This document shows, piece after piece, positions 8,101 to 60,476 of a stretch of 64,000 bases of DNA. Origin of the DNA: Eubacteriales bacterium. Its GTDB lineage: Bacteria > Bacillota > Clostridia > Lachnospirales > JAITVM01. Within the stretch, counting starts at the first letter, position 1. Each line of letters opens with the position of its first letter. Below the pieces are notes generated by a model that was not told the origin of the DNA, did not search any database, and saw nothing but the letters and a program-made list of their open reading frames with translations. A program made the position numbers and the translations under genes. The stretch is taken from the NCBI GenBank assembly GCA_031551135.1, contig JAVBOA010000006.1:17502-81501 (forward strand), given 5' to 3'.

Positions 8101-9500
8101 GGATTAACAAAAATATTAAACTCATCTAATATCTTTCCGTCTTTTAATTTTACTGCGCCGATCTCGATTATACGGTCGGATGTAGCCGAAAGCCCCGTTG
8201 TTTCGATATCAAAAACGACATACTCGCTGTCAAAGCCTTGTGATTTAGGAAATTCAACAATCGCTCCCAAATCATCAACAATATAAGCCTCTACCCCATA
8301 AATAATTTTTATTTTATCTTTATTTTTATTCCAAACCTCCATAGCTTCCGGAAAAGCCTGAACAACGCCGTGGTCAGTTATTGCAACGGCTTTGTGTCCC
8401 CAGTAAATTGCACGTTCTATTAAAGATTTCGCAGAGCTTATTCCGTCCATCGAGCTCATCTGCGTATGTAAATGCAATTCTACCCTTTTTTCCTCCGCAT
8501 TGTCATTTCTGACTTTAGGCTTTTCATAAGGTCCGATTTCTTTCGCCATAATATTTACTTCACGAGAGAACTCGTCATCATTTACAGTGCCTTTGACAAT
8601 AATATAATTTCCGTTCTTTAATAATGATTTAAAATTGTTATCAAAATTATCGGGTTTTATAAAAAACTTAATGGTTACAGAATTATATTTATCTGTAACA
8701 CAAAATGAAATTAAATATTTACCTGATTTTGTTTCACGCAAATCAAATTCAAATATTTCGCCCTTAATAACCATCTCGTTGCCGATTCGCAAACTCTCCG
8801 AAAGTTTTGTTGTTTGGCAGACTTCGGCCAAGTTCGGGACAAATTTAATATTTGTACGCCTTTGAAAACGTTCATTCTTGTCTATATACGAATTATTTGC
8901 TGTTCCGGTTTTCGAATCCTCGTTTCTTTTTATTTCTACAGCGGCTTCAAATTTAGTCAATTTTGTTTCATTTTCAATCAGGCGTTTCCTTTCGATTTCC
9001 TTATCTTCTTCCGATAAAGGCATTTCTTTAAATTCAATTACAAAATCGAGATTCAGCACTTTTTTTAAATAAGATATAATCAATTTGTCAATAGCTCGTT
9101 TATATAGCATATATGATGAATTATTTTTGCAGTTCAGAATAATTTTTCTATCATCTATACTAAAATCCGAATCTTCAATGAATTTTGCGCAAACGGGAGA
9201 TTTCTGTTTAACCAGAAAAAAAATATTTTCCCAAATATTATCTATGCTATCTTTTGGAGGTAGCTCGAAATCAAAAAAAACATTAACGTCGACCGATGAA
9301 AGATAAGGCAAATCCGCCTTTATTTCCTCTGACAGAGAAGAAAGCATTTTTTGATGTATAAATTTTTGGGAAGATATATCAATATTAATTATTTTATTTT
9401 TTTCGTCCAAAGAAATATTCTCAATTTCACATTCGCCAAATACATTTACAATATTTTTTGAGAGATTAAGTTTTTCAAAGGCTGTTCGGAAAGATTTCAC
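5169..9500 (-). CDS. polC: DNA polymerase III alpha subunit, Gram-positive PolC type
   Basis: 1443 aa. PHP motif ELHLHTQMSSMDG. Inserted DEDDh exonuclease (VVFDIETTGLS ... AHNASFD ... HRASDDA). Zinc-finger region CSECKYSD...CPVCG. GTG start with AGGTGA RBS. Confidence 0.97.
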   Translation of the reverse strand: MKSFRTAFEKLNLSKNIVNVFGECEIENISLDEKNKIINIDISSQKFIHQKMLSSLSEEIKADLPYLSSVDVNVFFDFELPPKDSIDNIWENIFFLVKQKSPVCAKFIEDSDFSIDDRKIILNCKNNSSYMLYKRAIDKLIISYLKKVLNLDFVIEFKEMPLSEEDKEIERKRLIENETKLTKFEAAVEIKRNEDSKTGTANNSYIDKNERFQRRTNIKFVPNLAEVCQTTKLSESLRIGNEMVIKGEIFEFDLRETKSGKYLISFCVTDKYNSVTIKFFIKPDNFDNNFKSLLKNGNYIIVKGTVNDDEFSREVNIMAKEIGPYEKPKVRNDNAEEKRVELHLHTQMSSMDGISSAKSLIERAIYWGHKAVAITDHGVVQAFPEAMEVWNKNKDKIKIIYGVEAYIVDDLGAIVEFPKSQGFDSEYVVFDIETTGLSATSDRIIEIGAVKLKDGKILDEFNIFVNPHMKLPEKIIELTKITDDMLIGAPEIEEALGEFLDFAKDSVLVAHNASFDTGFIRIAANNLGIEIDNTVLDTLGLARLLLPELSKHKLNIVAEHLEISLENHHRASDDAKATAEIFIKFIDMLIQNNIKTLDEINIFASDKIDKKKLKTYHAIILVKNYVGLRNLYELISKSHLEYFYRRPRIPKSELIKQKEGLILGSACEAGEIFQAVFEKKADEYIKSLVEFYDYLEVQPIDNNLFLFRDGKVPNIQALIDLNKEIIELGEKYKKPVVATCDVHFLEPDDDVYRKIIMFAEGFKDSDIQAPLYFRNTEEMFKEFNYLSREKAHEIIVSNPNKIADMIEIIKPIPDETFPPKIDGAEDEIKKISLERAKSIYGDNLPEIVEERLQKELNSIIKNGFSVMYIIAQKLVWKSLEDGYLVGSRGSVGSSFVATMLSITEVNPLQPHYYCSECKYSDFDSDTVKQFLGGSGCDMPDMHCPVCGTLLKKDGHDIPFETFLGFDGDKEPDIDLNFSGEYQAKAHAYTEELFGTGFVFKAGTIGTIADKTAFGFVKKYFEEKGINARGAEINRLRNGCTGIKRTTGQHPGGLMIVPNDHSIYEFCPIQRPANDVKSNVITTHFDYHSISGRLLKLDILGHDVPTIIRYLQDNTGIDPTAVDLGDEKVISLFTSPKALGITLDELGCKTGSLGLPEFGTTFVRQMLLDTEPSSFAELVRISGLSHGTDVWFNNAQDLIHDGVATLKEVIPTRDDIMVYLINKGVEKKAAFKIMENVRKGKGLTDSESETMKAAKVPDWYIESCRRIKYMFPKGHAVAYVMMTVRIGYFKIYYPYSFYGASFSVKAEDFDYELMCQGADKVFGEIERLNSMGKDISAKEKGTLTILELVYEMYKRNLKFLPLDLYKSDAKKFIVTENGLLPPLCSIQGLGSNAAFAILEARKDGEFFTIEEFRERTKTTKTVIQLLKKLEILKGIPDTDQLSFF

Positions 9501-9508
9501 AAAATCAC

Positions 9509-10564
9509 CTAAATTTTATCTATTTCAGCAATTAAAGCATCTATTAATTCTTCTTCGTTTACTTTTTTTATAACTTCGCCTTTTTTTATAATAAGACCTA
9601 CGCCTTTTCCGCCGGCAATAGCCAAATCGGCTTCTTTTGCTTCGCCCGGGCCATTTACAACACAGCCCATAATCGCCACTTTTAATTCTTTTTTGATATT
9701 TCGGCAACGGTATTCAACTTCATTTGCAAGTTTTATCAAATCAATTTCGGTACGTCCGCAAGTCGGACAAGAAATAAATTCTATTCCGAATTTTCTTAAA
9801 TTCATCGATTTTAAAATTTCTTTTGCACATTTAATTTCCTGAACAGGGTCTGAGGTCAAAGAGACTCTTATTGTATCTCCGATTCCGCGCGATAAAATCG
9901 AGCCGATTCCGACCGCTGATTTAATAGAGCCTGTATATTCCGTTCCAGATTCGGTTATTCCGACATGCAAGGGATAAGAGGTCAGATTGCTGATAATTTC
10001 ATAAGCTTCTATAGAAAACATCACGCTGGAAGCTTTTAAGCTAACAACAATATTATCAAAATCAAGTGATTCTAAAATTTCAACATTGCGCATTGCACTT
10101 TCTACTAAACCGATCGGTGTAACGCCGTTGTATTTTTGGATAATGTCTTTTTCCAGAGAGCCGGAATTTACGCCGATTCTAATAGGAACAGAATATTCTT
10201 TAGCTTTTGCCACTACTTTCTTTACACGTTCTATATCGCCGATATTTCCGGGATTTATTCGAATTTTATCCGCACCGTTTTCTATAGCCTCGATTGCCAG
10301 CCTATAATCAAAATGTATGTCCGCAACTATCGGAATATTTGTAGATTTTTTTATTTCTTTTAGAGATTTAGCGGCTTCAGAATCTTTTATTGCAAGACGG
10401 GTAATTTCGCATCCCGCCTCTTCCAGTTTTTTTATTTGTGAAACGGTAGATTGCACATCTCTTGTATCCGTGTTATTCATAGACTGAATACTAATAAGGC
10501 TGTCACCGCCTATATAAACGCCGCCAACAGCTATTTTCTTCGTTATCTTACGGTTATAAAACAA
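9509..10564 (-). CDS. ispG: 4-hydroxy-3-methylbut-2-enyl diphosphate synthase (flavodoxin)
   Basis: 351 aa GcpE-family sequence (SMNNTDTRDV, RINPGNIG, FISCPTCGRT ... AIMGCVVNGPGEA). TTG start after GAAGGTGA. Confidence 0.95.
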   Translation of the reverse strand: MFYNRKITKKIAVGGVYIGGDSLISIQSMNNTDTRDVQSTVSQIKKLEEAGCEITRLAIKDSEAAKSLKEIKKSTNIPIVADIHFDYRLAIEAIENGADKIRINPGNIGDIERVKKVVAKAKEYSVPIRIGVNSGSLEKDIIQKYNGVTPIGLVESAMRNVEILESLDFDNIVVSLKASSVMFSIEAYEIISNLTSYPLHVGITESGTEYTGSIKSAVGIGSILSRGIGDTIRVSLTSDPVQEIKCAKEILKSMNLRKFGIEFISCPTCGRTEIDLIKLANEVEYRCRNIKKELKVAIMGCVVNGPGEAKEADLAIAGGKGVGLIIKKGEVIKKVNEEELIDALIAEIDKI

Positions 10565-45670: not shown

Positions 45671-46435
45671 TTAATGTTTACGCATATGGTTTAAATTTCC
45701 GTTATTTTTTATTTTCAGAATTTCCGCCATAACAGAAATTGCAATTTCTCCGGGCGTTCCGTCCGATATATCGATTCCTATCGGCGCATAAATTTGAGCA
45801 ATCGTTTCTTCAGATACTCCTTCGGATTTCAACCGCTCAAGCAAAGTCTTTACTTTTGTTTTTGAACCAATCATCCCTAAATAAGCGTATTTTTTGTTTA
45901 TGCAATGTGACAAAGCGTCATAATCGTATTTATGCCCCGATGTGCAAATAATAATATAAGTGTTTTCATCAAATTCATATTTTTCCGGAATCTCAGAAAC
46001 ATAATTAGCTTTTTCGAATAATGGTTTAAACTCTTCGCGGCTGTCGACAACCGTAATATTAAAAGCAGTGTTTTTGGCAATGCTATAAATACTTTGGGAA
46101 ACATGTCCGCCGCCGAAAACTAATAATTTCTTGTCGTCGCCCAAAACAACGCCAAAGCCTTTTATGCCTCCGCCGCAAATCATTCCCTTTTCTTCCAGTT
46201 TGAAATCAAATTCGAAAGTCTTTTTGTTTTCCAGAATCGAATTTTTCGCTAATTGAATTATTAAATATTCTGTTGTTCCGCCGCCGACCGTTCCGCTGAT
46301 ATTTCCGTTTTTATCAACAGCGATAACTTGTCCGGGCGTTCCGGGTGCGCCTGATGCTTTATCCGTGATTGTTACAAACGCAACCTTTTGCCCTGATTTT
46401 ATTCTTTCCTCAATAAATTTTAAAGTTTTAAGCAT
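45671..46435 (-). CDS. xdhC: XdhC/CoxI-family molybdenum hydroxylase maturation protein
   Basis: N-terminal XdhC_CoxI-like region, then a Rossmann-like LLVFGGGHVSQSIYSIAK segment. Confidence 0.8.
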   Translation of the reverse strand: MLKTLKFIEERIKSGQKVAFVTITDKASGAPGTPGQVIAVDKNGNISGTVGGGTTEYLIIQLAKNSILENKKTFEFDFKLEEKGMICGGGIKGFGVVLGDDKKLLVFGGGHVSQSIYSIAKNTAFNITVVDSREEFKPLFEKANYVSEIPEKYEFDENTYIIICTSGHKYDYDALSHCINKKYAYLGMIGSKTKVKTLLERLKSEGVSEETIAQIYAPIGIDISDGTPGEIAISVMAEILKIKNNGNLNHMRKH

Positions 46436-46439
46436 ATTC

Positions 46440-47240
46440 TCACCTATCCAATTTTCTGCGCAAATATAAATACGCTTCCAAAGCCGAGCCGCCTAAACAT
46501 CTCGCCTTATCCGAAATTGTATTCCAATCAACATCTTTTCGAGGGTCAACGTCCGCAACTTTTAAGCCTTTTTTCACGTATAAATTTTCGCTGATCAATC
46601 CTCGTAAAAGTCCGTCGAGCGGCGAAATTACTTCCGTATCTCCGACATAAAATAAAATTTCGCCTTTTGCTACGATATCGCCGATTTTTTTAACATGCCG
46701 AACGATTCCCGAATTCGGCGAATGTACGACTCTCTCTGCGGATTTTCCTGCAATATCACCGGGAATATTTGTATTCGGAAATGCCGCGCCGCTGAAAATC
46801 AAACGCCCTAAATCATGACCTCGCATAGATTCTATCACTATGTCGACATCTTGTCCGGCAACAAATCCCGGCCCTATTGCGATTGTTATTCCTGCCATAG
46901 ATTTATTTGTTCCTAAATTTTTTTTTGCTATGATTGCGTCAACAACCGCTGCCGGTTTCAATTCTTCAATGGATTTTCCGCTTTCATCAACGTAAATCGG
47001 AACTAAGTTTTGATTAAAACAATTATCAATTTCCGAAATGTCAGAAATTTTTACGGCTTCCAAATCTTCAACTTTGGCTTTATTTTCAAAAACCGCACTA
47101 GATAAAGCGACAGTCCGGCGGATTGTTGTAGGCCGCTCTGTTTCCAGAACCAATATTTTAAGCCCTGCTCTAAAAAATTTTTGTATAACACCCGTTGCCA
47201 AATCGCCGCCGCCGCGAATTATAATTAAATCTTTATTCAT
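46440..47240 (-). CDS. yqeB: Selenium-dependent molybdenum hydroxylase system protein, YqeB family
   Basis: ATG 47240 after AGAGGTGA. IIIRGGGDLATGV ... ERPTTIRRTVALSSAVF matches my recollection of the YqeB/EF2563 family. Confidence 0.75.
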   Translation of the reverse strand: MNKDLIIIRGGGDLATGVIQKFFRAGLKILVLETERPTTIRRTVALSSAVFENKAKVEDLEAVKISDISEIDNCFNQNLVPIYVDESGKSIEELKPAAVVDAIIAKKNLGTNKSMAGITIAIGPGFVAGQDVDIVIESMRGHDLGRLIFSGAAFPNTNIPGDIAGKSAERVVHSPNSGIVRHVKKIGDIVAKGEILFYVGDTEVISPLDGLLRGLISENLYVKKGLKVADVDPRKDVDWNTISDKARCLGGSALEAYLYLRRKLDR

Positions 47241-47970
47241 AGTCACCTCTATATAATTCAATCCATTTTTTTTGTTTCGCACTTCCGGATAAAATTAAAT
47301 CTATTTTAATTCCGTCGTCCAAAATATATTTCTTTAATTTTTGGGCATTATTAAATTCTTCCAATTCTTCAATTTGATTGATTATCAAAATTCGTTTTCC
47401 GACGCTGTTTTTAAACATTCCGAAATCGCCGCTCACCATTTTGGAAATATCCTTAATACTGACTTTTGAATTTAAATCCGCACATGTATTTTTTATAAAA
47501 TAATTCACACGGTGAACATTTTCCTCCGAAACCGTTTCTCCCAGACCATTTAAAGTGATAACGCCGATTGTGTGCGTTGTGTTTTTATAAATAACCGGTT
47601 CGTACTCATTCCAGCCTTTCAGCGGAAGCCCTTTCGAGCCGTCGGCCTCGATAAGCGAAATATCATAGCGCTGAATTATCTTATCCAATGTATGAAACGA
47701 AAGGGATTTTAGTTTTCGGGGATTTTCATCCTGATTCCCAAGAATATTTACTCCTCTGTGTTCTATGTATTCAAAAGCATTGCGGTCACCTAAAATTAAA
47801 TCAATATCAGTCGGCTTAAAAATTTTTGTGGATGTTGTCAATAATACTTTTTTATGCAAATTTTCTTCAGCAATCAAAAACATAATGCTGGTTTTCCCGC
47901 CTGCTCCAACAATGGATAATACAGCTTTTTCACGTATATTCAAAATTTTACTTAAACTTGTATTGTACAT
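47233..47970 (-). CDS. yqeC: Putative selenium cofactor biosynthesis protein YqeC
   Basis: P-loop-like VLSIVGAGGKTSIMFLIAEE and EADGSKGLPLKGWNEYEPV. Overlaps yqeB by 8 nt. Confidence 0.75.
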   Translation of the reverse strand: MYNTSLSKILNIREKAVLSIVGAGGKTSIMFLIAEENLHKKVLLTTSTKIFKPTDIDLILGDRNAFEYIEHRGVNILGNQDENPRKLKSLSFHTLDKIIQRYDISLIEADGSKGLPLKGWNEYEPVIYKNTTHTIGVITLNGLGETVSEENVHRVNYFIKNTCADLNSKVSIKDISKMVSGDFGMFKNSVGKRILIINQIEELEEFNNAQKLKKYILDDGIKIDLILSGSAKQKKWIELYRGDYE

Positions 47971-49854: not shown

Positions 49855-51327
49855 TTATAAAATCAGCATTGCAAAAATCGAAACAGCTCCCGAAATAAGA
49901 ATGATAATTAAATCATTCAATTTTAAAAATTTATGTAAACAATAAACCGTAAATAGAATTCCGACAATTACTACTAAAGAAAGATAATTTGATATTCCCG
50001 CTGTTATAGAAATTTTTATCATTTCGGAAAGCATAGAAATCATTGTCGTTATTAGCATTCCGCAAATTACGGGCAAAATCCAAGTTTTAAGCGATATAAA
50101 AACCTTTATTTCGGAAAAAGCTTTATAAACTAATTCAACCAAAAAATATGAAATGCAGGAAAAGCCTATTCCTATAGTAAATCCTAATATCGCCAAAATA
50201 TACGCCGCTCCGATTGAATTTATTTTTCCGGCACCAAAAGAATATCCTATACAGGATAAAAGTTTGACCAAAATCGGCCCGGGCAGAGCATTTGTAATCG
50301 GCAGCATTTGGCTATAGAAAACATCAGAAGAAACAAAACCGCCGTCCACAAATAATCCGTGCGCTACGGTTAAATATGCTTCGCCACCGCCAAAAGAAGT
50401 AACTGTAGAGATTATGCCGAATTTCAAATAATCTATTATTTCACTGCCGAACAAAATGTAAGCGATTGCGGCAAAAATCAATATAGCGGCGAGAAAATAT
50501 GAACAAACTATGAGAGTGCCTTTAATATCAATTTTATTTGTACTTCTTTTTTCACTCTTTGCGTCTAAATATGTAAATACAACACAAAGCAAAAGCATTG
50601 TATACATAATAATATTTTTCATCAGCGGAAAACTAAAACCTGTTCCCTTTCCCGAAAGAAGCACAAAAAAGACCGAGATTATTACACAAAGCGAAATTCG
50701 TATATATTTTAAAATCGAGTTTTTGTATTTTGAAAAATCCCCGACTGTGAATATTATAAAAAACACTAACAGTAAAAGGTCGATTGTTGATATATCCAAA
50801 AATGCTTTTCCCAATGAATCCTGCGGAATATTTGCAAATATTTCATAAATTAACGCACGTATTTCTTTTCCGCATGTCAAAAAAGCTGAAGCCAGCATAA
50901 TTATAATTTTATAATTTCTTTCGGTTTTGGAAGTATTCAGAACTTTAAGAATATAATGTACAAGCAAAAAAATAATAAACGCAGAAATCCCGATTGAAGC
51001 ATATTCAATTAAAAGCAAGCCTTGTTTATCCATCGTCGCTATCAAAGATAAAAGAATTACCGAAATAAAAACTCCCGGAAATGCCAAGGTATAGGCGGAT
51101 AAGAGCGAAAACAAAGCTCCTGAATGTTCTTTTCCGATAGCGGCGCTTAATTTTACCGGTAAAGCACCCGGTGTAATATTTGCAATTATTGTTTCCTCTG
51201 TGTATTTTTCCGACGAAACAAAGTTTTTATCTATAACAGCCTCCTTTTCAATAACCGGAATCAGCGCACTGCCACCGCCAAAACCAATTAAACCGATTTT
51301 TAAAAATGTTTTAATTAATTCAAACAT
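49855..51327 (-). CDS. CHR-family (chromate-transporter-like) oxyanion transporter, two-domain form
   Basis: 490 aa polytopic protein. N-terminal FLKIGLIGFGGGSALIPVIEKE and a second FGGGEAYLTV ... LPGPI half, as in duplicated CHR domains. Confidence 0.75.
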   Translation of the reverse strand: MFELIKTFLKIGLIGFGGGSALIPVIEKEAVIDKNFVSSEKYTEETIIANITPGALPVKLSAAIGKEHSGALFSLLSAYTLAFPGVFISVILLSLIATMDKQGLLLIEYASIGISAFIIFLLVHYILKVLNTSKTERNYKIIIMLASAFLTCGKEIRALIYEIFANIPQDSLGKAFLDISTIDLLLLVFFIIFTVGDFSKYKNSILKYIRISLCVIISVFFVLLSGKGTGFSFPLMKNIIMYTMLLLCVVFTYLDAKSEKRSTNKIDIKGTLIVCSYFLAAILIFAAIAYILFGSEIIDYLKFGIISTVTSFGGGEAYLTVAHGLFVDGGFVSSDVFYSQMLPITNALPGPILVKLLSCIGYSFGAGKINSIGAAYILAILGFTIGIGFSCISYFLVELVYKAFSEIKVFISLKTWILPVICGMLITTMISMLSEMIKISITAGISNYLSLVVIVGILFTVYCLHKFLKLNDLIIILISGAVSIFAMLIL

Positions 51328-51361: not shown

Positions 51362-52045
51362 TCAAATTTCGATAATAAAAATCTCGTTATTCAGCAAATC
51401 AATCCGCATAATCGATTTATCCAGAATATTGCCGCGATTCAGCAGTAATTTAATTGCTTCCGAAGTTTCAAACGCAGAAACCGCCTGCACCGTAAAAGGC
51501 AGATTGCCCTGCGAACTGTCAATATAATCATCTTCCAGATTTCCGTATATTTTTTCGAAAAGATTCGAATCCGGCATAAAAACAGCAATTTGCCCGTAAA
51601 AACCCCGGACTGCGCCATGCACTACCGGAATCGAAAGTTTTCTGCATATCTGGACAATAATTCTTCTGGTTTTAATATTATCGAGTGCGTCAATCACTAA
51701 ATCATTTCCGGAAATTATTTTTTCGGCATTATTTTCGTCTATTCTTTCATAAACAGGATTTACAATTACGTCAGAATTTACCTCTTTAATTCTCTCGGCA
51801 GCGGCATAAGCTTTCGGCAAACCGATTTTTTTTTCTGTGCAAAATAATTGCCGGTTTAAATTTGATTCTTCGAAAACGTCTCCGTCTGCAATTGTAAGAT
51901 TCAACACGCCTATTCTTGCAAGTGTTTCGGCAATATATCCGCCCAATCCGCCTGCGCCGATTATGCAGATTTTTTTTCCATGAAGAATCCTCATATCTTC
52001 CGAAGACAGAGAATTATAATTTCTGGCATATCTGTTTTCAAACAT
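51362..52045 (-). CDS. ThiF/MoeB/HesA-family adenylyltransferase (E1-like), short form
   Basis: ICIIGAGGLGGYIAETLARIGV ... DGDVFEESNLNRQ. No rhodanese domain and no CxxC pairs visible. Confidence 0.8.
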   Translation of the reverse strand: MFENRYARNYNSLSSEDMRILHGKKICIIGAGGLGGYIAETLARIGVLNLTIADGDVFEESNLNRQLFCTEKKIGLPKAYAAAERIKEVNSDVIVNPVYERIDENNAEKIISGNDLVIDALDNIKTRRIIVQICRKLSIPVVHGAVRGFYGQIAVFMPDSNLFEKIYGNLEDDYIDSSQGNLPFTVQAVSAFETSEAIKLLLNRGNILDKSIMRIDLLNNEIFIIEI

Positions 52046-52059
52046 ATAATCAACTGCCT

Positions 52060-53940
52060 TTATATTTCAATAATTTCGCCTATTCTATCGTAAGTATAAC
52101 CCGAAAATTCATTTAATTGAGTTTTGAATTCATCGCTTTTTATTATAGAAATAAAATCTTGAACCCTAGTATCTTCCAAATATTCCTGCGCTATTAAAAA
52201 ATCATACTCTTCATTAAAAAGCGGAACAAAATCCAAATCCATAGCTTTTGCAGCGGCGTATATACCAAGACCGACATCAGATTGACCCGATTTTACCGCT
52301 ATCGCAACTGCCAAATGTGTGTTGAATTCTTTTTCGTATCCATAAATTTCGCTAATTTCGATATTTTCTTTTTTCAGGCTATAGTCAAATAAAATTCTCG
52401 TGCCCGCACCTCTCTGCCGATTTGCATATTTAATATTATTTTTTAAATCGGCGAAATTTTTAATGCCGAACGGATTTCCTTTTTGAACAATAAAGCCTTG
52501 AACCCTGCCAACACCCTTAATCAGCAGCATTTTTTTATCTTTTATAAATTTTCTTGCATAAGATAAATTATATTCGCCGCTCTCCTCGTCCAAAAGATGA
52601 ATCGGAGCTAAATGACATTCGCCTCTTTTGATAGCGGTGATTCCTCCCATACTGCCGACATGAGCCGAAGACAGAGGCATTTTATCCGAAATCACATCAA
52701 TTATTAAATCGTGGCTTCCGGTAACAACCAATGTTTTTTTTATTTCATGAACCGGCTTCAATAATTCTATTTCTACAGTTTTTCCGGCTTCTATTCCTTC
52801 GAGATTACGAGGGATTATCATTTTACCATCGGCTTTTATAAGGCTCATCACCGCCGCCGCGCCTCTTTCCAAAGGAGTAGCAACAAATTTATTGTCTACA
52901 TATCCTAACGAGACGCGTATTATTTCTTCGTTTTTAATCGACGAAACAATCGAACGTGTAACGCTAGCTTCGATAAAATCAGCTGATTCGTCGTTTTGCT
53001 TATCTAAAAATCTCATCACAATAGGTTTGACAAATTTATCGAACATCAAATAAGCCGAAACGGGATAACCGGGAACACCAATTACGGGCTTTTGCATTAT
53101 TTCAGCCAAAATCGTCGGTTTTCCGGGTTTTATGGCAACTCCGTGAGTATGCAGAGTACCAAGCTCTTTTATGCATTTCAATGTAAAATCTTTAGTTCCC
53201 GCTGAAGTTCCGGCGTTTATAACTACAATATCATTTTCAGAAATAGCTTGCAATATTGTTTTCTTCAAATCGTCAATATTATCTCTGACAATCGGATATC
53301 TTTTTCCTTCTGCACCATATTGATCAGCCAAAGCCATAAAAACATGAGAATTTGATTCCATAAGCTTATTTTCGCCGATATCGTTCGGGTTCTCTACAAG
53401 CTCAGCGCCTGTTGGAATAATTCCGATCTTCGGTTTTTTATAAACTTCTATCTCTTTGTAGCCGCCGGCTACCAGCGCACCCATATCCAGCGGACGGATT
53501 TTATGTTTCGACGGCAGAATCATTTCTCCTGCAACAATACTTTCGCCAACAACTCTGATATGCTGCCAAGGCGCGGCGGCTTCGATTATTTCAATCGTAT
53601 TTTCATCAATAAGAATACAATCTTCAATCATAATTACAGAATCAAATTGAGCTTTAATTTGCCCGCCTGTATTAATATATTCAAAATTTTCATGCTGTAT
53701 TAATCTGATTTTGTTTAATTCATTCGCTCCGAATGTATCTTTTGAATGAACAGCAATTCCGTCCATGGCTGCGGCATTATACATCGGGTCACAGATTTTT
53801 GCCAAAACAGGTTTATAAGTATATCTGCCAAGCGCCGAATCTATATCAACAGTTTCTTTTTCAGCGCGTATTCCAAACAAAGAAATATATCTGTCAAACG
53901 CATCTGCAGGGTCGTTATTCTCTATATAAGTATTTCTCAT
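52060..53940 (-). CDS. moeA: MoeA-type molybdopterin molybdenum/tungsten transferase fused to a C-terminal periplasmic-binding-protein-like domain
   Basis: 626 aa. MoeA core (AAMDGIAV ... PGKPT ... GVPGYPVS), then about 200 aa of PBP-like sequence (LVVTGSHD ... NRQRGAGTR). Confidence 0.8.
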   Translation of the reverse strand: MRNTYIENNDPADAFDRYISLFGIRAEKETVDIDSALGRYTYKPVLAKICDPMYNAAAMDGIAVHSKDTFGANELNKIRLIQHENFEYINTGGQIKAQFDSVIMIEDCILIDENTIEIIEAAAPWQHIRVVGESIVAGEMILPSKHKIRPLDMGALVAGGYKEIEVYKKPKIGIIPTGAELVENPNDIGENKLMESNSHVFMALADQYGAEGKRYPIVRDNIDDLKKTILQAISENDIVVINAGTSAGTKDFTLKCIKELGTLHTHGVAIKPGKPTILAEIMQKPVIGVPGYPVSAYLMFDKFVKPIVMRFLDKQNDESADFIEASVTRSIVSSIKNEEIIRVSLGYVDNKFVATPLERGAAAVMSLIKADGKMIIPRNLEGIEAGKTVEIELLKPVHEIKKTLVVTGSHDLIIDVISDKMPLSSAHVGSMGGITAIKRGECHLAPIHLLDEESGEYNLSYARKFIKDKKMLLIKGVGRVQGFIVQKGNPFGIKNFADLKNNIKYANRQRGAGTRILFDYSLKKENIEISEIYGYEKEFNTHLAVAIAVKSGQSDVGLGIYAAAKAMDLDFVPLFNEEYDFLIAQEYLEDTRVQDFISIIKSDEFKTQLNEFSGYTYDRIGEIIEI

Positions 53941-53965: not shown

Positions 53966-55189
53966 TCAGAACAAATCAACAAAAACTTTTTCGCCTGCCA
54001 TATAACCTTCGATATTTTCGGGTATTGAAAATATCCCGTCCGATTTTTGAATTTGACTTATAAGTCCGGATTTCCCATAGACCGGTTTTGCCAAAATTTT
54101 ATCTTTCTCATAAATCAATTGAACGGATTGAAAGGTCATTTTTCCGGGAGAAGAATGTACATTTTCGGTTAATTGCGCCAAAACTGGTTTAGGATTTCTT
54201 GTACCATAAATTAAATCAAGATAATATTCTACAATAATTTTAAAAATAATCAAGCAAGACACGGTTTGCCCCGGCAGTCCAAAAACAGGCTTTTCTCCGA
54301 CTTTTCCGATTATGCTCGGCTTTCCCGGCTTTATCGAGATTCCATGAACCAAAACTTCTCCGTTTTCTATGGCGTTTATTGCGCTGTAAGTATAATCTTT
54401 TTCTCCGACAGAGCTTCCACCGGACATAATAACAAAATCGTTATCCGCAAGCGATTCCTCTATAGCATTTTTTATATCCAAAAAATTATCTTTGATTATT
54501 CTTCGAGAAGTAATTTCGATTCCTCTTTTTTGCAAAGCGGCTGAGATTACATATGAATTTGTATCTCTTATTTTGCCTTTTGCTATTTTTTCATCAATAT
54601 CAATAATTTCATCACCGGTCGACAAAATACTGCATTTCGGCATTTTTATTAAATCGAGTTCGAATATTCCGGCCGCCGACAAAATTCCAATATCCAATTC
54701 ATTTATTATTTTTCCTTTTTCCAATAATAAATGATTAATTTTACAATCATCGCCCTCACGTATTATATTTGAATTCGGCGCAATCGATTTATTCACGGCT
54801 ATAGTTTTTTCATCAATCTGCTCGACATATTCTATCATAACTATTCCATCAGAATTTGTCGGAATAATTCCTCCTGTAGGGACTTTTACACATTCGCCGC
54901 TTTTTATAGAGATTTCTTTGCCTTCGCCCATAAAAATCTCATCAATTACATTTAGAAAACAGGGCACGGTTTCAGAAGCCCCGAAAGTATCGCCGGCGAG
55001 CACGGCGTATCCGTCTACGGTTGAACGGTCGAATAAAGGCGTATTTTCAAAAGAATATATTTTTTTTGAAGAAACTCTCCCAATACATTTAGAAAGCTGA
55101 ACTTTTTCGGATTCCAAATTCTCTCTATAAAATTCATCTTTAATTTTTTGCTTTACTTCATCAATACTCATTAAATTTAAAAATCCCAC
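53966..55189 (-). CDS. moeA: Molybdopterin molybdenumtransferase MoeA
   Basis: 407 aa. STVDGYAV, SGGSSVGEKDY, KPGKPS and GLPGQTVS motifs. Non-ATG start. Confidence 0.88.
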   Translation of the reverse strand: MGFLNLMSIDEVKQKIKDEFYRENLESEKVQLSKCIGRVSSKKIYSFENTPLFDRSTVDGYAVLAGDTFGASETVPCFLNVIDEIFMGEGKEISIKSGECVKVPTGGIIPTNSDGIVMIEYVEQIDEKTIAVNKSIAPNSNIIREGDDCKINHLLLEKGKIINELDIGILSAAGIFELDLIKMPKCSILSTGDEIIDIDEKIAKGKIRDTNSYVISAALQKRGIEITSRRIIKDNFLDIKNAIEESLADNDFVIMSGGSSVGEKDYTYSAINAIENGEVLVHGISIKPGKPSIIGKVGEKPVFGLPGQTVSCLIIFKIIVEYYLDLIYGTRNPKPVLAQLTENVHSSPGKMTFQSVQLIYEKDKILAKPVYGKSGLISQIQKSDGIFSIPENIEGYMAGEKVFVDLF

Positions 55190-55198
55190 AATACACCT

Positions 55199-55807
55199 CT
55201 AATTAAGCGTTAATCGATTTTTGCAAATTCTGGATATTTGAGCTTTATTATGCGAAACAATAATTATTGTTGTTTTATTTTTCTTATTATATTCCAAAAT
55301 ACAATCTTCCAATTGAGTTATTGTATTTGCGTCAATCGCCGAAAAAGGCTCGTCCAGCAAAAGCAGTTTCGGTGCGGCGACAAACGCCCGGCCCAATGCA
55401 ACCTTTTGCGCTTCGCCCCCCGAAAGCTTTCTTGCATTCTGTTTAACGAGTTTTTCCAGACCCAAAAGCCTAATAATTTCTTCGGTATTTGATTTTATCA
55501 AATCCTTATTGATTTTTCTCAATTTTTGCGGATATTCAATATTTTTATAAACAGACCTATCCAAAAGCATCGGAGTTTGGAAAACCATAGTTACAAAGCT
55601 TGGATTAATCCCGGAACCACCGTATGTAATTTTACCTTTGAAATCAGTATCCAAGCCGGCAATTATTTTAAGCAATGTCGTTTTTCCCGTGCCGTTATCG
55701 CCTTCCAACGACGAAATTTCTCCGCTCGGAAAAACCATTTCCTTTATATTCAATGAAAATTTTTTGGACAAAGTTTTTGATAAATCGATAATTTTAAGTT
55801 CCATCAT
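55199..55807 (-). CDS. tupC: ABC transporter ATP-binding protein (tungstate TupC-like)
   Basis: Walker A GDNGTGKTT, signature LSGGEAQKV, Walker B LLLLDEP. Overlaps tupB by 14 nt. Confidence 0.75.
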   Translation of the reverse strand: MMELKIIDLSKTLSKKFSLNIKEMVFPSGEISSLEGDNGTGKTTLLKIIAGLDTDFKGKITYGGSGINPSFVTMVFQTPMLLDRSVYKNIEYPQKLRKINKDLIKSNTEEIIRLLGLEKLVKQNARKLSGGEAQKVALGRAFVAAPKLLLLDEPFSAIDANTITQLEDCILEYNKKNKTTIIIVSHNKAQISRICKNRLTLN

Positions 55808-56498
55808 TTTCCTTGCTTTCTTTAAACGAATACGAAATCCAGTTAATCCCGAACGAAACAGAAATCAATATTATTCCCAATGCGATTGCCATAGGATAAT
55901 CGCCCATCGAGTTTAACATCGAAATCGTCGTGGTCATAACCCTTGTCTCGCCTTCAATATTTCCGCCAACCATCATAACAGCCCCAACTTCTGAAATCGC
56001 TCTCGAAAAAGCTGTTATTATGTAAATAAATAAAGTCGGTCTTAATTCAGATATAATCAAAAGAGTTGTTTGCCATTTATTGGCTCCCAAAGTCTTCGCA
56101 AGATTTTTTATTACACGTCCGTTGGTTTTGGATAAATCATAAGTCATAGCCGAAATGAGCGGCAAAACTAAAAAAAATTGCGCAATAATCATCGCTTTGT
56201 TTGTATATAAAAGCGATAAAAAACCCAAAGGCCCGCGGCGCGATAAAAATAACATTATAATCAAACCAACAATAACCGACGGCGTGCTCATAAAAGTATT
56301 TAAAAGGCGAGATAGAAATCTCTCGCCTTTTAAAGAAACACTGCCTAAATAAATAAAAATCGGAACAGCAACCAAAGAAGCCAATATGGTTGCTGAAATT
56401 GATACAAAAAGCGATCTTGCGACAATCTGAATGAAGTCCGGGCTAAAACTAAAAATAATTCTAAAAGCCTCGAAAAAACCTTCAATAATATATTTCAT
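55794..56498 (-). CDS. tupB: ABC transporter permease (tungstate TupB-like)
   Basis: 234 aa with about 5-6 TM helices and an EAA-like loop AFSRAISEVGAVMMVGGN. Confidence 0.75.
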   Translation of the reverse strand: MKYIIEGFFEAFRIIFSFSPDFIQIVARSLFVSISATILASLVAVPIFIYLGSVSLKGERFLSRLLNTFMSTPSVIVGLIIMLFLSRRGPLGFLSLLYTNKAMIIAQFFLVLPLISAMTYDLSKTNGRVIKNLAKTLGANKWQTTLLIISELRPTLFIYIITAFSRAISEVGAVMMVGGNIEGETRVMTTTISMLNSMGDYPMAIALGIILISVSFGINWISYSFKESKENDGT

Positions 56499-56527
56499 TT
56501 AATTAATCCCAATCTTTTCATATCTTA

Positions 56528-57721
56528 TTATTTAGCGTTTGGTATAAATAAAGCTTTTCCGTATTTATCAACGCCGAATTTTGAAATTAAATCTTGAGTT
56601 TTTTCAGAAATTATCCAATTTGCAAAATCTACAGCACCTTTAACGTTAATAGAATCATTTTTTGTAGGGTTTACTACAAGAACGCCGTATTGATTAAATA
56701 ATTTGCTGTCGCCTTCGCAAAGAACCACAAGGTCTAATTTATCTTTCATGCTCAAATAAGTTGCTCTGTCTGTGAGTGTATAAGCTTGCATTTCGTTAGC
56801 CATGGTAAGAACAGCGCCCATACCTTGACCGGCCGATACATAATATTTAGAGTTTGGAGTTATCGAAACTTCTTTCCATAATTTCTTTTCCAATTTATCT
56901 GTTCCCGAATCGTCTCCTCTGGAAACAAATTTAGATTGAGCTTTGTCAATCGCTTTAAGCGAGCCTAAAATATCTTTTGCAGTTGATTTAACTCCGGCCG
57001 GGTCTTTTGCAGGACCAACAAGAATAAAATCGTTATACATAACATCGGAGCGGTACATTCCATCGCCGGATGCCATAAACGCTGTTTCATCAGCTTTCGC
57101 ATGTACAAGCAAAACATCAGCTTCGCCGTCTTTACCCATTTGAATAGCTTTTCCTGTTCCCACAGATACAACTTTTACATTATAGCCGGTTTCTTTTTCA
57201 AAAACAGGCAATAAATAATCTAATAAGCCACTGTCTTGAGTGCTGGTTGTTGTGGAAAGAATTATATTTTTATTTGAATTTGTTTTTGCGATATCACCGG
57301 AAACGGTTACCGTTCTGCTCGACGCATTCCATTCAACTTTAGCGTCAAAAGCTTCGGATACAAATCTAAGCGGTACAAAAGTTTGGTTATTTATGATGAC
57401 CGGAGCGGTATCAAAAGTTTTAGATTGTTTATTGATTTTTACGTTTTTATCGCCGATAGTAGTAATTACATAAGTTTTTGGAGATACGAAAGTAATTGTT
57501 TTAGTTTGGTCATTGTAACATGTGTCAATTCCCAAAGCTGTGGCTAAATCTCTAACAGGAACTTGAGTTCTGCTCATACTGTCGATAAACGGTTTGCCCA
57601 AAGAAAATTCTACATTTTTCCCGTTTACCTTAACCGAAATATCCGCTGCCATAGCCGGAACTGTAAAGAAAACCAAAGATAATAACATTGCGATAAAAAT
57701 ACTAAAAATACCTTTTTTCAT
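56528..57721 (-). CDS. tupA: Tungstate-binding protein TupA fused to an N-terminal copper-amine-oxidase-N-like (stalk) domain
   Basis: ATG 57721 after GGAGG. Signal peptide ...VPAMA/AD without a lipobox Cys. VKVNGKNVEF...QVPVRDLATALG...FVPLRFVSEAFDAKVEW is stalk-like. TTTSTQDSGLLDYLLPVFEKETGYNVKVVSVGTGKA...LLVHA...NDFILVGP is the TupA-type binding fold. Confidence 0.78.
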   Translation of the reverse strand: MKKGIFSIFIAMLLSLVFFTVPAMAADISVKVNGKNVEFSLGKPFIDSMSRTQVPVRDLATALGIDTCYNDQTKTITFVSPKTYVITTIGDKNVKINKQSKTFDTAPVIINNQTFVPLRFVSEAFDAKVEWNASSRTVTVSGDIAKTNSNKNIILSTTTSTQDSGLLDYLLPVFEKETGYNVKVVSVGTGKAIQMGKDGEADVLLVHAKADETAFMASGDGMYRSDVMYNDFILVGPAKDPAGVKSTAKDILGSLKAIDKAQSKFVSRGDDSGTDKLEKKLWKEVSITPNSKYYVSAGQGMGAVLTMANEMQAYTLTDRATYLSMKDKLDLVVLCEGDSKLFNQYGVLVVNPTKNDSINVKGAVDFANWIISEKTQDLISKFGVDKYGKALFIPNAK

Positions 57722-57764
57722 AAAATAACCTCCAGTGTTTTTGATAAGCGTATAACGCCCACTT

Positions 57765-57880
57765 ATACTATTTTCATTTAGATAGGTAGAAAAAAATTTT
57801 TCACAGCGGAGCGTTTCGCGCAATGTTTCTAGCGCGAAATGAAATATTTTTTTCTATCCTTAATATTGAAAATGGTATTA
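57765..57880. repeat. Family-1 element, full copy 5
   Basis: ATACTATTTTCATTTAGATAGGTAGAAAAAAATTTTTCACAGCGGAGCGTTTCGCGCAATGTTTCTAGCGCGAAATGAAATATTTTTTTCTATCCTTAATATTGAAAATGGTATTA. Lies 44 nt upstream of the tupA ATG. Confidence 0.9.
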
Positions 57881-57986: not shown

Positions 57987-58015
57987 TTGACAACTTAAAT
58001 ACAATAATATATACT
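57987..58015 (+). promoter_or_regulatory. Sigma-A type promoter for the riboswitch-aor operon
   Basis: TTGACA (57987..57992) - 17 nt - TATACT (58010..58015), ending about 8 nt before the riboswitch P1 strand. Confidence 0.6.
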
Positions 58016-58021
58016 AATAAT

Positions 58022-58116
58022 ATACTCCGAGTTTGGCGAAAGCCAAACCAATGGGCTGCGCAGCAGCCTGCCGTGTTTGCAAAGGAGCTTCTTTTTAAGG
58101 AGGCTTCTTTTTTGTT
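58022..58116 (+). promoter_or_regulatory. Molybdenum/tungsten cofactor (Moco/Tuco) riboswitch candidate with expression platform
   Basis: ACUCCGAG - UUUGGC GAAA GCCAAA - CCAAU - GGGCUGC..GCAGCCU - GCCGUGUUUGC - AAAGGAG. 5' CUCC can pair with 3' GGAG (P1), there are two capped stems, and the conserved CCGAG and AAAGGAG elements are as I recall for the Moco RNA motif. Sits upstream of a tungsten enzyme gene. Confidence 0.7.
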
Positions 58117-58378
58117 TGCTTATAACAATGATTTTATAATAAAATCTGCAGTACCAATAGCACAAATACTCAAGTATTTTGATGAAATCGGAGTACAAAA
58201 AAATTCCGGCGGATATTATACATTCAATAGTTTGGAAATAACTATCAAAGAAGATTACAATCCTGTGTTTTCGAATTTATTAATTCCCCAGAATACAATT
58301 ATTATCGAAGGCACACGTGAAGAATGTATCTTATTTGTAGATAAATTCAGATTAAAATTTTTATCTGCCGGTGGCTGA
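58112..58378 (+). CDS. Small hypothetical protein (88 aa) ending in Gly-Gly
   Basis: TTG 58112 preceded by AAGGAGG-N8. The ORF-track start at 58073 lies inside the riboswitch. Ends ...FRLKFLSAGG-stop. No family recognised. Confidence 0.5.
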   Translation: MFAYNNDFIIKSAVPIAQILKYFDEIGVQKNSGGYYTFNSLEITIKEDYNPVFSNLLIPQNTIIIEGTREECILFVDKFRLKFLSAGG

Positions 58379-58458
58379 TTTGCATTTTTTAATCTGAAAG
58401 CATCATTTATTGCGGCTATACAAATTCAATATATAGTAATACATAAGGAGTGAATATT

Positions 58459-60255
58459 ATGTCAATATCTTACAATGAAAAAATTTTAAGAGTAAATTTA
58501 ACGGAGAAAAATTATACAATCGAAGGACTCGATTTAAATCTTGCTAAAAAATTCATCGGCGGGCGCGGCTTGGGAACAAAAATCTATATGGATGAAGTTT
58601 CACCGGAAATCGACCCATTTTCACCGGAAAATAAAGTTGTTATAATTACAGGTCCACTGTCCGGAGCTTCTGTTCCGACCGGCGGAAGATATATGGTTGT
58701 TACAAAATCTCCTTTAACAGGAATGATTGCTTCCTCAAATTCTGGCGGACATTGGGGCGGAAAGCTCAAATATGCCGGATATGACGCTATAATTTTAGAA
58801 GGAAAAGCTGAAACCCCTGTTTATATGAATATTGTCGACGACAAAATCGAAATTTTGGATGCCGGTGATTTATGGGGCAAAACTACCGAAGAAACCGAAG
58901 AAATCTTGAAATCCAGACATGAGGGCGCATGCATTATGAATATAGGGCCTGCCGGAGAAACTCTCTCATTGCTTGCGTCGGTTATGAACGACGGAGACAG
59001 AGCCGCAGGACGTTCGGGAGTCGGCGCAGTTGTCGGCTCTAAAAACCTAAAAGCCATCTGCGTTACGGCTACAAGGGGAAATATTCCTGTATACGATTCG
59101 GAAAAATTAAAAGAAGTAACTAAATCATGTTTGGCAAAAATTAAGGAAAACGGAGTAACCGGCTCGGGTTTGCCGACCTTCGGTACTGCTGTATTAGTAA
59201 ATATTATAAATCAAGTTGGTTCTTTTCCGGTAAATAACTGGCAAGGCGCAAGCGACGACGATGCCGACAAAATATCCGGCGAAACCCTAAAGGAAACTAA
59301 ACTTGTGAAAAACGGCTTCTGCCATAGATGTCCAATCGGCTGTGCAAGAATAGTTGATATCGACGGCAAAATCTGCGGCGGTCCCGAATATGAAACATTA
59401 TGGGCATTCGGTTCGGATTGCGGAATACATGATTTGGATGCAATAAACAAAGCTAATTTAATGTGTAATGAAATGGGCAACGACACAATATCTGTAGCAA
59501 CGACAATCGCCGCCGCTATGGAACTTTATCAAAAAGGCTTTATAAAAGAAGAAGATTGCGAAGGCGTACCTTTGAATTTCGGAAATTCCGAAGCCATTGT
59601 TAAATGGACAGAAAGAATGGGCAGAGGCGAAACCGCTCTCGGCAAATTAATGGCTCAAGGCTCTTACCGCTTATGTGAACATTACGGTCATCCGGAATTT
59701 TCAATGAGCGTTAAAAAACAGGAAATACCTGCCTACGACGCACGCGGCATTCAGGGAATCGGATTGAATTACGCAACCAGCAACCGCGGCGGATGCCATG
59801 TTAGAGGATATATGATTTCACCGGAAATTTTAGGCTTGCCGGAAGCTTTGGACAGAACCACAACCGAAAATAAAGCTACTTGGACGAAAATTTTCCAAGA
59901 CCTTACAGCGGTAATCGATTCTACAGGCATGTGTTTGTTTACTTCATTCGCACTCGGAGCAGACTCCTATGCCGATTTGCTTAATGCCGCTATCGGTACT
60001 GATTTTACAGTTGAAAGCATTTTAGAAGCCGGAGAAAGAATTTATAATCTCGAAAGACTCTATAATAAATTAGCCGGAATGAAACCGGAAGACGATACTT
60101 TGCCGAAACGCATTCTCGAAGAGCCGATTCCGGAAGGACCGTCGAAAGGCATGGTAAGTAAATTAGATATTATGCTGCCGGAATATTATAATGTGCGCGG
60201 TTGGGAAAACGGATTCCCTACCGAGAATACATTAAAACGCTTGGAGTTAATATAA
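58459..60255 (+). CDS. aor: Aldehyde:ferredoxin oxidoreductase (tungstopterin enzyme)
   Basis: ATG 58459 after AAGGAG-N8. AOR N-domain (KILRVNLTEK ... GGRGLG) and the cluster/pterin region CHRCPIGCA ... EYETLWAFG ... GGCHVRGY. Confidence 0.93.
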   Translation: MSISYNEKILRVNLTEKNYTIEGLDLNLAKKFIGGRGLGTKIYMDEVSPEIDPFSPENKVVIITGPLSGASVPTGGRYMVVTKSPLTGMIASSNSGGHWGGKLKYAGYDAIILEGKAETPVYMNIVDDKIEILDAGDLWGKTTEETEEILKSRHEGACIMNIGPAGETLSLLASVMNDGDRAAGRSGVGAVVGSKNLKAICVTATRGNIPVYDSEKLKEVTKSCLAKIKENGVTGSGLPTFGTAVLVNIINQVGSFPVNNWQGASDDDADKISGETLKETKLVKNGFCHRCPIGCARIVDIDGKICGGPEYETLWAFGSDCGIHDLDAINKANLMCNEMGNDTISVATTIAAAMELYQKGFIKEEDCEGVPLNFGNSEAIVKWTERMGRGETALGKLMAQGSYRLCEHYGHPEFSMSVKKQEIPAYDARGIQGIGLNYATSNRGGCHVRGYMISPEILGLPEALDRTTTENKATWTKIFQDLTAVIDSTGMCLFTSFALGADSYADLLNAAIGTDFTVESILEAGERIYNLERLYNKLAGMKPEDDTLPKRILEEPIPEGPSKGMVSKLDIMLPEYYNVRGWENGFPTENTLKRLELI

Positions 60256-60257
60256 TT

Positions 60258-60476
60258 ATGGAAATACGGCTGTTTGCGACTTTGCGTGAAGGTCGTGAAA
60301 AAGTATTTCATATTTCCGATATAAATATAAAAAATGGTTTTGATTTAGCCGAAAAATTGAAAATCCCGAAAGAAGAAATTGCTATATTTTTAATAAACGG
60401 CCGTCATAGTAAATTAGATGCGAATTTGAAAGACGACGATATAATCGCTATTTTTCCACCCGTTGGCGGCGGTTGA
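60258..60476 (+). CDS. moaD: MoaD/ThiS-family ubiquitin-like sulfur carrier
   Basis: 72 aa. MEIRLFATLRE ... INGRH ... DDIIAIFPPVGGG-stop. ATG 2 nt after the aor stop. Confidence 0.85.
   Translation: MEIRLFATLREGREKVFHISDINIKNGFDLAEKLKIPKEEIAIFLINGRHSKLDANLKDDDIIAIFPPVGGG

Follow-up and report, generated by a model that had tools for sequence, protein, structure and literature searches.

The stretch of DNA analysed here, referred to as the window, comprises 64,000 nucleotides of contig JAVBOA010000006.1 from a Eubacteriales bacterium. On its forward strand, positions 57987-60476 read as a single unit, consisting of a promoter-like site, a riboswitch, a hairpin, a small gene designated orf88, the aor gene for a tungsten aldehyde:ferredoxin oxidoreductase (AOR) and a moaD gene (Table 1). 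An earlier note, made from the letters of this DNA, had described orf88 as the first gene of a riboswitch-aor-moaD operon, and this description holds both in the window and in at least 27 related loci. The gap between orf88 and aor spans 80 nt and contains no predicted terminator, while moaD starts two bases past aor. As had likewise been noticed, aor is bracketed by two small open reading frames (ORFs) that end in Gly-Gly, with the C-termini ...FRLKFLSAGG for orf88 and ...PPVGGG for moaD; 14 orthologues of this MoaD all keep the final GGG. The orf88 protein belongs to a catalogued family of uncharacterised function, and may well be an accessory factor in maturing the tungsten cofactor of AOR.

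The orf88 gene and its riboswitch leader

The orf88 frame is closed by the codons GGT GGC TGA at positions 58370-58378, giving the C-terminus ...DKFRLKFLSAGG. The TTG start codon at 58112, which had been deduced from the ribosome-binding site, is supported by the Shine-Dalgarno (SD) sequence AGGAGG at 58098-58103, 8 nt 5′ of the TTG, and by the resulting N-terminus MFAY, which is in line with the family N-terminus MF[TSA]Y. In two homologues (L011 and L013) the latter motif starts with ATG. A longer version of the gene would start from GTG 58073, a codon that falls within the riboswitch aptamer. The identical product of 88 residues is already recorded, without a name, in one NCBI assembly and in one Logan assembly.

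Among the 155 six-frame ORFs of at least 60 residues in the window only two terminate in Gly-Gly, i.e., orf88 and moaD. Given a Gly frequency of 7.2%, such an end is expected by chance in about 0.5% of ORFs; the earlier note had put this figure at well under 1%. The conservation of Gly-Gly across homologues, rather than these chance odds, is taken to be the real signal, and orf88 is judged from it to be a real, conserved gene of a small family. It could be argued that the ORF is not a gene, but a chance ORF or a leader peptide 5′ of aor, as it is short, has a non-ATG start which overlaps the U tract of the terminator, and lacks a curated NCBI name. This explanation is refuted by conservation and can be regarded as negligible: there are 94 distinct homologues with identities of 22-47%, equal length, an equal end and an in-frame indel pattern, the MFxY N-terminus and the tail are conserved, the SD sequence is strong, and the predicted foldable domain matches a crystal structure.

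The leader of the operon contains an aptamer of the molybdenum cofactor/tungsten cofactor (Moco/Tuco) riboswitch class, in which cmscan and alignments identify the conserved core (CUCCGAG ... GGG ... GCCUGCC ... GCAAAGGAG) together with helices P1, P2 and P4. The score of the window aptamer falls below the RF01055 gathering score of 36; homologous leaders score 47.7 bits (L007), 34.9 bits (L010) and 34.7 bits (L008) against the same model. In a census with a strict pattern, the riboswitch core was found directly upstream of the orf88 homologue in at least 27 distinct loci, all of which belong to the clade of the window, and in none of the loci from other clades. With known RF01055 elements the window aptamer shares the conserved core, a position upstream of a cofactor-using enzyme and the absence of P3, as in the tungsten-cofactor variants. 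The original description of the motif ties the P3-less variants to the tungsten cofactor and treats repression alone (Regulski 2008, PMC2408646).

In the predicted expression platform, a hairpin takes up the P1 3′ strand (GGAG) as its 5′ arm and sequesters the SD sequence AGGAGG. Since the P1 3′ strand and the 5′ arm of the hairpin are the same, P1 and the terminator/sequestor are mutually exclusive. The unconstrained fold yields the hairpin, and forcing P1 to form costs 6-9 kcal/mol in the four loci that were folded. Most of 24 related leaders share this platform, which was noted in L008, L010, L012 and about 20 further loci; in some of the leaders the 3′ arm of the hairpin is a perfect complement without an SD sequence. 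Unlike the characterised E. coli moaA element, which is an OFF switch, the window platform, with the P1 3′ strand inside the terminator, predicts activation, such that ligand binding should switch the operon on (an ON-type Tuco riboswitch). If the operon is induced by the finished cofactor, this ON logic implies that its products would more likely act at or after the delivery of the cofactor to AOR than in bulk molybdopterin synthesis.

Family assignment, predicted fold and C-terminal tail

Relatives of the orf88 protein were collected with HMMER in an index-free search that covered 1.8 billion representatives and returned 18 family members of 87-129 residues with 31-47% identity, aligned through the final residue. 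A profile search brought 15 further members, resulting in an unbiased set of 33. A word-indexed protein search with the single orf88 sequence gave no match beyond orf88 itself, searches of local Pfam, NCBIfam and PDB sequences with the single protein gave nothing useful, and three of the 18 members match TIGR04140 weakly (E 0.003-0.012). The earlier note could assign the protein to no family. This proved to be incorrect, as precomputed matches to PF09189.16 ("MoaD_arch") are present on the window protein (E at most 1e-5) and on all 20 other members that were returned (21/21). The older local model PF09189.15, named DUF1952, picks up only one of the 18 members (E 0.0044), and membership of PF09189 therefore rests on the newer model. 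One homologue carries the UniRef label "MoaD-related C-terminal domain-containing protein". A comparison of the family profile with PDB sequences identifies residues 100-152 of 1v8c_A (E 0.0024). PDB entry 1V8C is the "MoaD related protein" of Thermus thermophilus HB8, a protein of 168 residues, and the matched region is its second domain, located behind an N-terminal MoaD domain.

Two AlphaFold2 (AF2) models were calculated from alignments of 18 and 33 sequences, with predicted local distance difference test (pLDDT) scores of 78 and 76, respectively. Both models display the topology β1-α1-β2-β3-β4-α2. In Foldseek searches of the PDB with either model, 1v8c ranks first and is the sole significant match (E 3e-3 and 6e-4, probability 1.00), superimposing with an rmsd of 2.1 Å over 62-63 columns. 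The homologous core comprises helix 1 and strands 2-4, with a TM score of 0.60 over 62-68 columns. As modelled, the orf88 protein is a small α/β domain without β-grasp fold, homologous to the C-terminal domain of 1V8C. Both domains are tied to an AOR-type MoaD, by fusion in Thermus, by operon in the case of orf88, and by translational coupling in some relatives; in contrast to the Thermus domain, the orf88 domain is a separate protein with a C-terminal helix and the invariant end ...FRLxFLSAGG.

A terminal Gly-Gly, an operon in common with MoaD and a thiF gene nearby would also be expected if the orf88 protein were a second ubiquitin-like β-grasp carrier of the MoaD/ThiS type, and a β-grasp fold was what the earlier note had proposed to look for. 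However, the modelled order of secondary structure elements is β-α-β-β-β-α and not β-β-α-β-β; no ubiquitin, MoaD or ThiS structure occurs among the top 50 Foldseek matches in the PDB for either model; none of the 18 family members matches PF02597 at E values up to 10; and hhalign of the family against 14 AOR-linked MoaD proteins, the operon's own MoaD family, gives a probability of 0.4%. A β-grasp carrier is thereby largely refuted and highly improbable. The earlier note had foreseen two findings that would speak against its idea, i.e., an unrelated fold and homologues that do not keep the terminal Gly-Gly; the former was found, the latter was not. A MoaE-like or AOR-subunit role was also considered for orf88 and rejected, as no similarity was detected.

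It is evident from the alignment that the Gly-Gly tail is the conserved part of the family and that the body is poorly conserved. The terminal Gly-Gly is present in 18/18 members from the index-free search and in 14/15 further members, i.e., in 32/33 of the unbiased set. All 33 members end in a common alignment column, and 29 of them end in SAGG. The mean frequency of the top residue is 85% for the last ten residues and 46% for residues 1-78, and the tail consensus is F-R-[LF]-x-F-[LM]-S-A-G-G. No conserved Cys or His is present in the 33-member alignment. In AF2 model 2 the C-terminal helix ends at residue 84 and S-A-G-G (residues 85-88) adopts a coil conformation. The sole member without terminal Gly-Gly, P0026 from a 2.3-kb contig of a JGI metagenome, ends in ...FRLKFLSAGD, which could reflect either a mistake in sequencing or natural variation.

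The family thus resembles the MoaD/ThiS/Urm1/SAMP proteins (PF02597) in having a size of about 70-100 residues, Gly-Gly before the stop codon, adjacent genes for a ThiF/MoeB-type E1 and for cofactor synthesis, and a tail that is better conserved than the body. It differs from them in that it is not β-grasp and shows no sequence or profile similarity, and in that the tail follows an amphipathic helix instead of the last β-strand.

Genomic context in related loci and in the window

Locus scans, which covered a single genome from each species as well as JGI metagenomes, yielded 94 distinct family genes. The scan pattern FR[LF][KR]FLS[AL]GG imposes the terminal Gly-Gly by construction on loci L009-L108, and the loci were used for context only. 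An aor, moaD, radical-SAM (rSAM) or thiF gene lies within 6 kb of 46 of the 94 genes.

The clade of the window (clade 1) is characterised by the N-terminus MFxY and by identities of 34-47%, and many of its members were found on contigs of Clostridia/Defluviitaleaceae/Oscillospiraceae, those from termite gut among them. All loci of this clade with enough downstream sequence have the order orf-[rSAM/SPASM]-aor-moaD, in which the rSAM gene corresponds to TIGR04317, "tungsten cofactor oxidoreductase radical SAM maturase" (348 bits). A moaD gene lies within 3 kb of the orf88 homologue in all clade-1 loci with contigs that reach far enough, and directly upstream of it in clade 2a. The AOR proteins are 65-79% identical in the window's clade and 58-79% identical across related loci with family members. 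In the window's clade thiF is often immediately upstream or divergent, and moeA, moeA-PBP and tupABC are nearby. Over all loci, a thiF orthologue directly adjoins the orf88 homologue in at least ten (L010, L011, L013, L045, L046, L069, L028, L042, L090 and L105).

A second clade, with the N-terminus ...LEMRGMKR, includes Clostridium bowmanii and relatives and has the order aor-moaD-orf with a convergent thiF gene; moaD and orf thus follow each other as the MoaD and DUF1952 domains do in 1V8C. In four of its loci (L105-L108, Table 1) the moaD stop codon lies 1-10 nt 5′ of the orf start or overlaps the orf frame. At these junctions the GGAGGCGG codons for the terminal glycines of MoaD also serve as SD sequence of the DUF1952-like gene. 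In some Clostridium loci (L028 at about 9890-9945; L042, L090 and L101) a conserved palindrome AACCC(C/T)ATGATTATA...TCATGGGGTTTT is located between moaD and the family gene; being terminator-like, it would set the family gene apart as its own transcription unit in those loci.

The co-occurrence with aor and a Moco riboswitch that had been suggested as a check is thus observed in the window's clade, in at least 27 riboswitch loci, but not in about 48 of the 94 genes, which have no aor, moaD, thiF or rSAM gene within 6-10 kb. This unlinked group includes about 20 Desulfosporosinus species, Anaerosolibacter, Peptococcaceae, a Calditrichales metagenome-assembled genome (MAG) and a Promethearchaeum MAG. 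The neighbours vary and comprise YgbA_NO and rubrerythrin genes, amino-acid ABC transporters, MATE, A/V-ATPase and an operon with a thiamine pyrophosphate (TPP) riboswitch. In Desulfosporosinus locus L023 (9620-10961), and similarly in L016, the member is located between a YgbA_NO-family gene, encoding a small Cys-rich protein, and a rubrerythrin gene. The pairing is conserved, and in L016 the member and the gene upstream of it have 4 nt in common. In L004 a TPP riboswitch (8323-8426, 60 bits) lies just downstream of the unlinked member and controls NMT1/THI5-like, methyltransferase and YkoF-like genes. The Anaerosolibacter locus L002 contains two copies of the Clostridiales-2 small RNA (2462-2543 and 4957-5038; 73 and 79 bits) upstream of GDT1-family and MATE genes. 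The member in L014 (158-406), upstream of A/V-type ATPase genes, is found on a contig assigned to the Promethearchaeum (Asgard) MAG, reflecting either binning contamination or a real archaeal member.

In the window itself, a cofactor island is encoded on the opposite strand (Table 1). As the earlier note had observed, a short ThiF/MoeB-type gene is located about 6 kb from orf88, and its product contains no CxxC motif and gives no rhodanese match; in other loci, its orthologues are often adjacent to the family gene. The pair of moeA and moeA-PBP recurs in L011, L012, L013, L028 and L039, and tupCBA is also present beside the cluster in L012. A moaA, moaC, moaE or mogA/moaB gene was found neither in the scan of ORFs of 120 residues or more in 41-51 kb nor among the ORFs listed for 50.5-64 kb, the latter scanned in part. 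In the tupA ORF (56528-57823, minus strand) the TupA model leaves about 180 residues at the N-terminus uncovered, and the start is uncertain; translation probably begins at the internal MKKGIF... signal peptide, the alternative being an extra N-terminal domain. Part of the tupA region matches a separate gene in L011. Genes of the XdhC, YqeC and chromate-transporter families (45671-47970 and 49855-51327) adjoin thiF and extend the island. XdhC- and YqeC-family genes are accessory genes of molybdenum hydroxylases.

Table 1. Positions of the features in the window and of the moaD/orf junctions in related loci
Feature	Location	Strand	Remarks
sigma-70-like promoter, TTGACA-17 nt-TATACT	57987..58015	+	11/12 consensus positions; consensus match only
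Moco/Tuco riboswitch aptamer, P3-less	58013..58103	+	RF01055, 32.8 bits, E 8e-6
P1 strands of the aptamer	CUCC 58025-58028; GGAG 58084-58087		
Expression platform hairpin and U tract	58082..58117	+	58082-58093 pairing with 58098-58109, then U tract; predicted
orf88	58112..58378	+	88 aa; TTG start, TGA stop; stand-alone PF09189 (DUF1952/MoaD_arch) protein
Codons of the C-terminal decapeptide F-R-L-K-F-L-S-A-G-G	58346..58375	+	stop codon directly after
aor, tungsten aldehyde:ferredoxin oxidoreductase	58459..60255	+	598 aa; AFOR_N E 1e-78, AFOR_C E 7e-147
moaD, MoaD/ThiS-type β-grasp sulfur carrier	60258..60476	+	72 aa, ends PPVGGG; PF02597 E 3e-10
thiF, ThiF/MoeB-type adenylyltransferase	51362..52045	-	227 aa; PF00899 E 1e-52
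moeA-PBP fusion	52060-53940	-	PRK14498, 718 bits
moeA	53966-55189	-	MoeA
tupC, tupB, tupA (tungstate ABC transporter)	55199..57823	-	TupA model, 229 bits over residues 181-431
moaD/orf junction, L105	1902-1932		
moaD/orf junction, L106	638-650		
moaD/orf junction, L107	1765-1782		
moaD/orf junction, L108	822-834		

Proposed role and alternative explanations

The analysis suggests, with about as much confidence as doubt, that the orf88 protein helps, as an accessory factor, to mature the tungsten cofactor specifically for AOR, and that its Gly-Gly tail engages the ThiF/MoaD machinery. Its partners would be the ThiF-type E1 and the AOR-linked MoaD, joined in many relatives by the TIGR04317 rSAM maturase. 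The working end would be the exposed, invariant tail ...F-R-L-x-F-L-S-A-G-G-COOH, for which the globular, poorly conserved body may serve as a holder. Gly-Gly at the exact C-terminus is the mark of a tail that is inserted into a narrow pocket, for instance that of an E1 adenylation site or of MoaE. Engagement of the ThiF/MoaD machinery is favoured because a variable body is combined with a near-invariant tail that ends in Gly-Gly at the exact C-terminus; this tail could thread into a narrow, Gly-Gly-accepting pocket of the maturation machinery. The pocket that is favoured is the ThiF adenylation site, in which case orf88 would be a second carrier with a non-ubiquitin fold, and its terminus might be turned by ThiF into an acyl-adenylate and then into a thiocarboxylate.

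Precedents for such chemistry exist, as proteins without a ubiquitin fold can have their C-termini activated by E1-like enzymes; CBASS Cap2, with CD-NTases as substrates, and MccB, with MccA as substrate, are examples. In either case a ThiF-family adenylase activates the C-terminal carboxylate of a protein or peptide outside the β-grasp fold, and orf88 would be such a substrate by analogy only. The two systems function in phage defence or in the synthesis of an antibiotic, and neither is known to have a sulfur-carrier role. The more specific idea that the PF09189 Gly-Gly proteins form a new class of E1-activated non-ubiquitin-fold carrier is put forward as speculative and rather improbable. 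In this view the short ThiF would adenylate the terminal Gly of orf88, and the thiocarboxylate or conjugate formed from it would specifically supply AOR-type tungstopterin enzymes with sulfur or with a cofactor intermediate, perhaps once the bis-pterin has been assembled, while the finished cofactor would turn on the whole module through an ON-type Tuco switch.

The module in the window has counterparts in known systems. AOR-linked MoaD/MoeB clusters have been proposed to function in tungsten-cofactor synthesis (Iyer et al. 2006, PMC1779556). In T. kodakarensis an aor-adjacent MoaD (UblC) adjoins an rSAM gene, and after deletion of ublC half of the AOR activity and none of the FOR activity is left (PMC11323500); the specific activity of AOR in Aromatoleum is increased by aorD and aorE ("MoaD-like") (PMC9295118). 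These clusters, together with P. furiosus aor-cmo and A. aromaticum aorABC-aorDE (PMC6365974, PMC9295118), have in common with the window an aor gene with a dedicated MoaD, a ThiF/MoeB protein and often a TIGR04317-type rSAM protein, and the activity of AOR-family enzymes is raised by, or depends on, these accessory genes. In contrast to orf88, which is promoter-proximal and riboswitch-controlled, no separate DUF1952-type Gly-Gly protein appears in their descriptions.

The most serious alternative, although a good deal less probable than the proposed role, is that the orf88 protein is a non-covalent adaptor or cofactor chaperone for MoaD, ThiF, apo-AOR or the finished tungsten cofactor, and that its tail docks as a mimic of the MoaD tail or as a plug, without ever being adenylated. 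The covalent fusion of the homologous domain behind MoaD in 1V8C and the moaD-orf translational coupling in L105-L108 are compatible with such a function. The operon already contains a canonical carrier in MoaD, and the predicted ON riboswitch, which places the products downstream of cofactor availability, suits insertion or chaperoning over bulk precursor synthesis. On the other hand, a simple docking surface would not need Gly-Gly, and the near-absolute Gly-Gly at the stop codon, confined to one alignment column, is the pattern of tails that enter narrow catalytic channels. Furthermore, the orf88 protein shows no other conserved surface, and members exist in loci without aor or moaD nearby. 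The latter members provide the argument for regarding the family as general small proteins unrelated to the tungsten cofactor, with the aor clusters as one context among several. This explanation is unlikely, as linkage to aor-moaD is seen independently in two clades that differ in gene order, a cofactor-specific riboswitch directly precedes the gene in at least 27 loci, and Thermus has the homologous domain fused to its MoaD; the unlinked genes may still serve AORs encoded elsewhere in the genome.

It is just as unlikely that the orf88 protein is a substrate or recognition partner of the rSAM/SPASM tungsten-cofactor oxidoreductase maturase, with the decapeptide being modified in analogy to MftA/MftC and PqqA/PqqE. 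Typical targets of SPASM maturases are peptides or proteins in which a C-terminal core is conserved, and the combination of a variable body with an invariant C-terminal decapeptide would fit this behaviour, as would the about 30 related loci in which a TIGR04317-type gene starts 4-120 nt past the orf stop codon. However, aor follows orf88 directly, without an rSAM gene, in the window and in at least 12 related loci (including L008, L011, L013, L045-L047, L054, L059, L069, L077 and L079), the aor-moaD-orf loci of clade 2 lack an rSAM gene too, and the decapeptide is devoid of Cys, Tyr, Trp or Lys residues of the kind that are usually cross-linked. Conversely, the rSAM gene of T. kodakarensis accompanies aor and moaD with no orf88-like gene described (PMC11323500).

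Several observations also count against the proposed role of the orf88 protein as accessory factor with a tail that engages the ThiF/MoaD machinery. The T. kodakarensis aor-moaD-rSAM module just mentioned lists no such gene, archaeal AOR loci not having been searched for one, and about half of the family genes belong to the unlinked group. In AF2 model 1 the C-terminal helix extends to residue 87, and the pLDDT of the tail is only 63-65; the two models differ in the helix end (residue 84 versus 87), which leaves the state of the tail uncertain. Beyond residue 156, the sequence of 1V8C (157-168) is unlike FRLxFLSAGG, which implies that the helix and the Gly-Gly end belong to the stand-alone proteins and not to the whole Pfam family. 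Finally, full-text literature searches did not find a functional study of DUF1952, 1V8C or "MoaD-related protein".

The family is hence catalogued, in Pfam and by a structural-genomics structure from 2004, but uncharacterised. As far as could be found, three features appear to be new: the invariant Gly-Gly C-terminus on the stand-alone form, the recurrence of an orf88-type gene, often as first cistron, in riboswitch-controlled aor-moaD operons, and a riboswitch platform that predicts activation. The earlier interpretation of the orf88 protein as a second sulfur or metal carrier, or as a modifier dedicated to tungsten-cofactor or AOR maturation, is partly supported by these results.

The route by which the tungsten bis-pyranopterin cofactor reaches AOR-family enzymes is poorly understood, as is the reason for which aor is accompanied by MoaD, ThiF and rSAM genes of its own. 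The maturation step limits the heterologous production of active AOR, which is wanted for acid-to-aldehyde biocatalysis and for syngas fermentation. The orf88 protein would constitute a fourth recurrent component of the AOR module, of which the sole strongly conserved feature is a ubiquitin-style Gly-Gly on a non-ubiquitin fold. In this way, a 20-year-old structural-genomics orphan (1V8C, DUF1952) is now linked to the AOR maturation pathway, and the link would be of high interest if it is true that the tail is activated by an E1.

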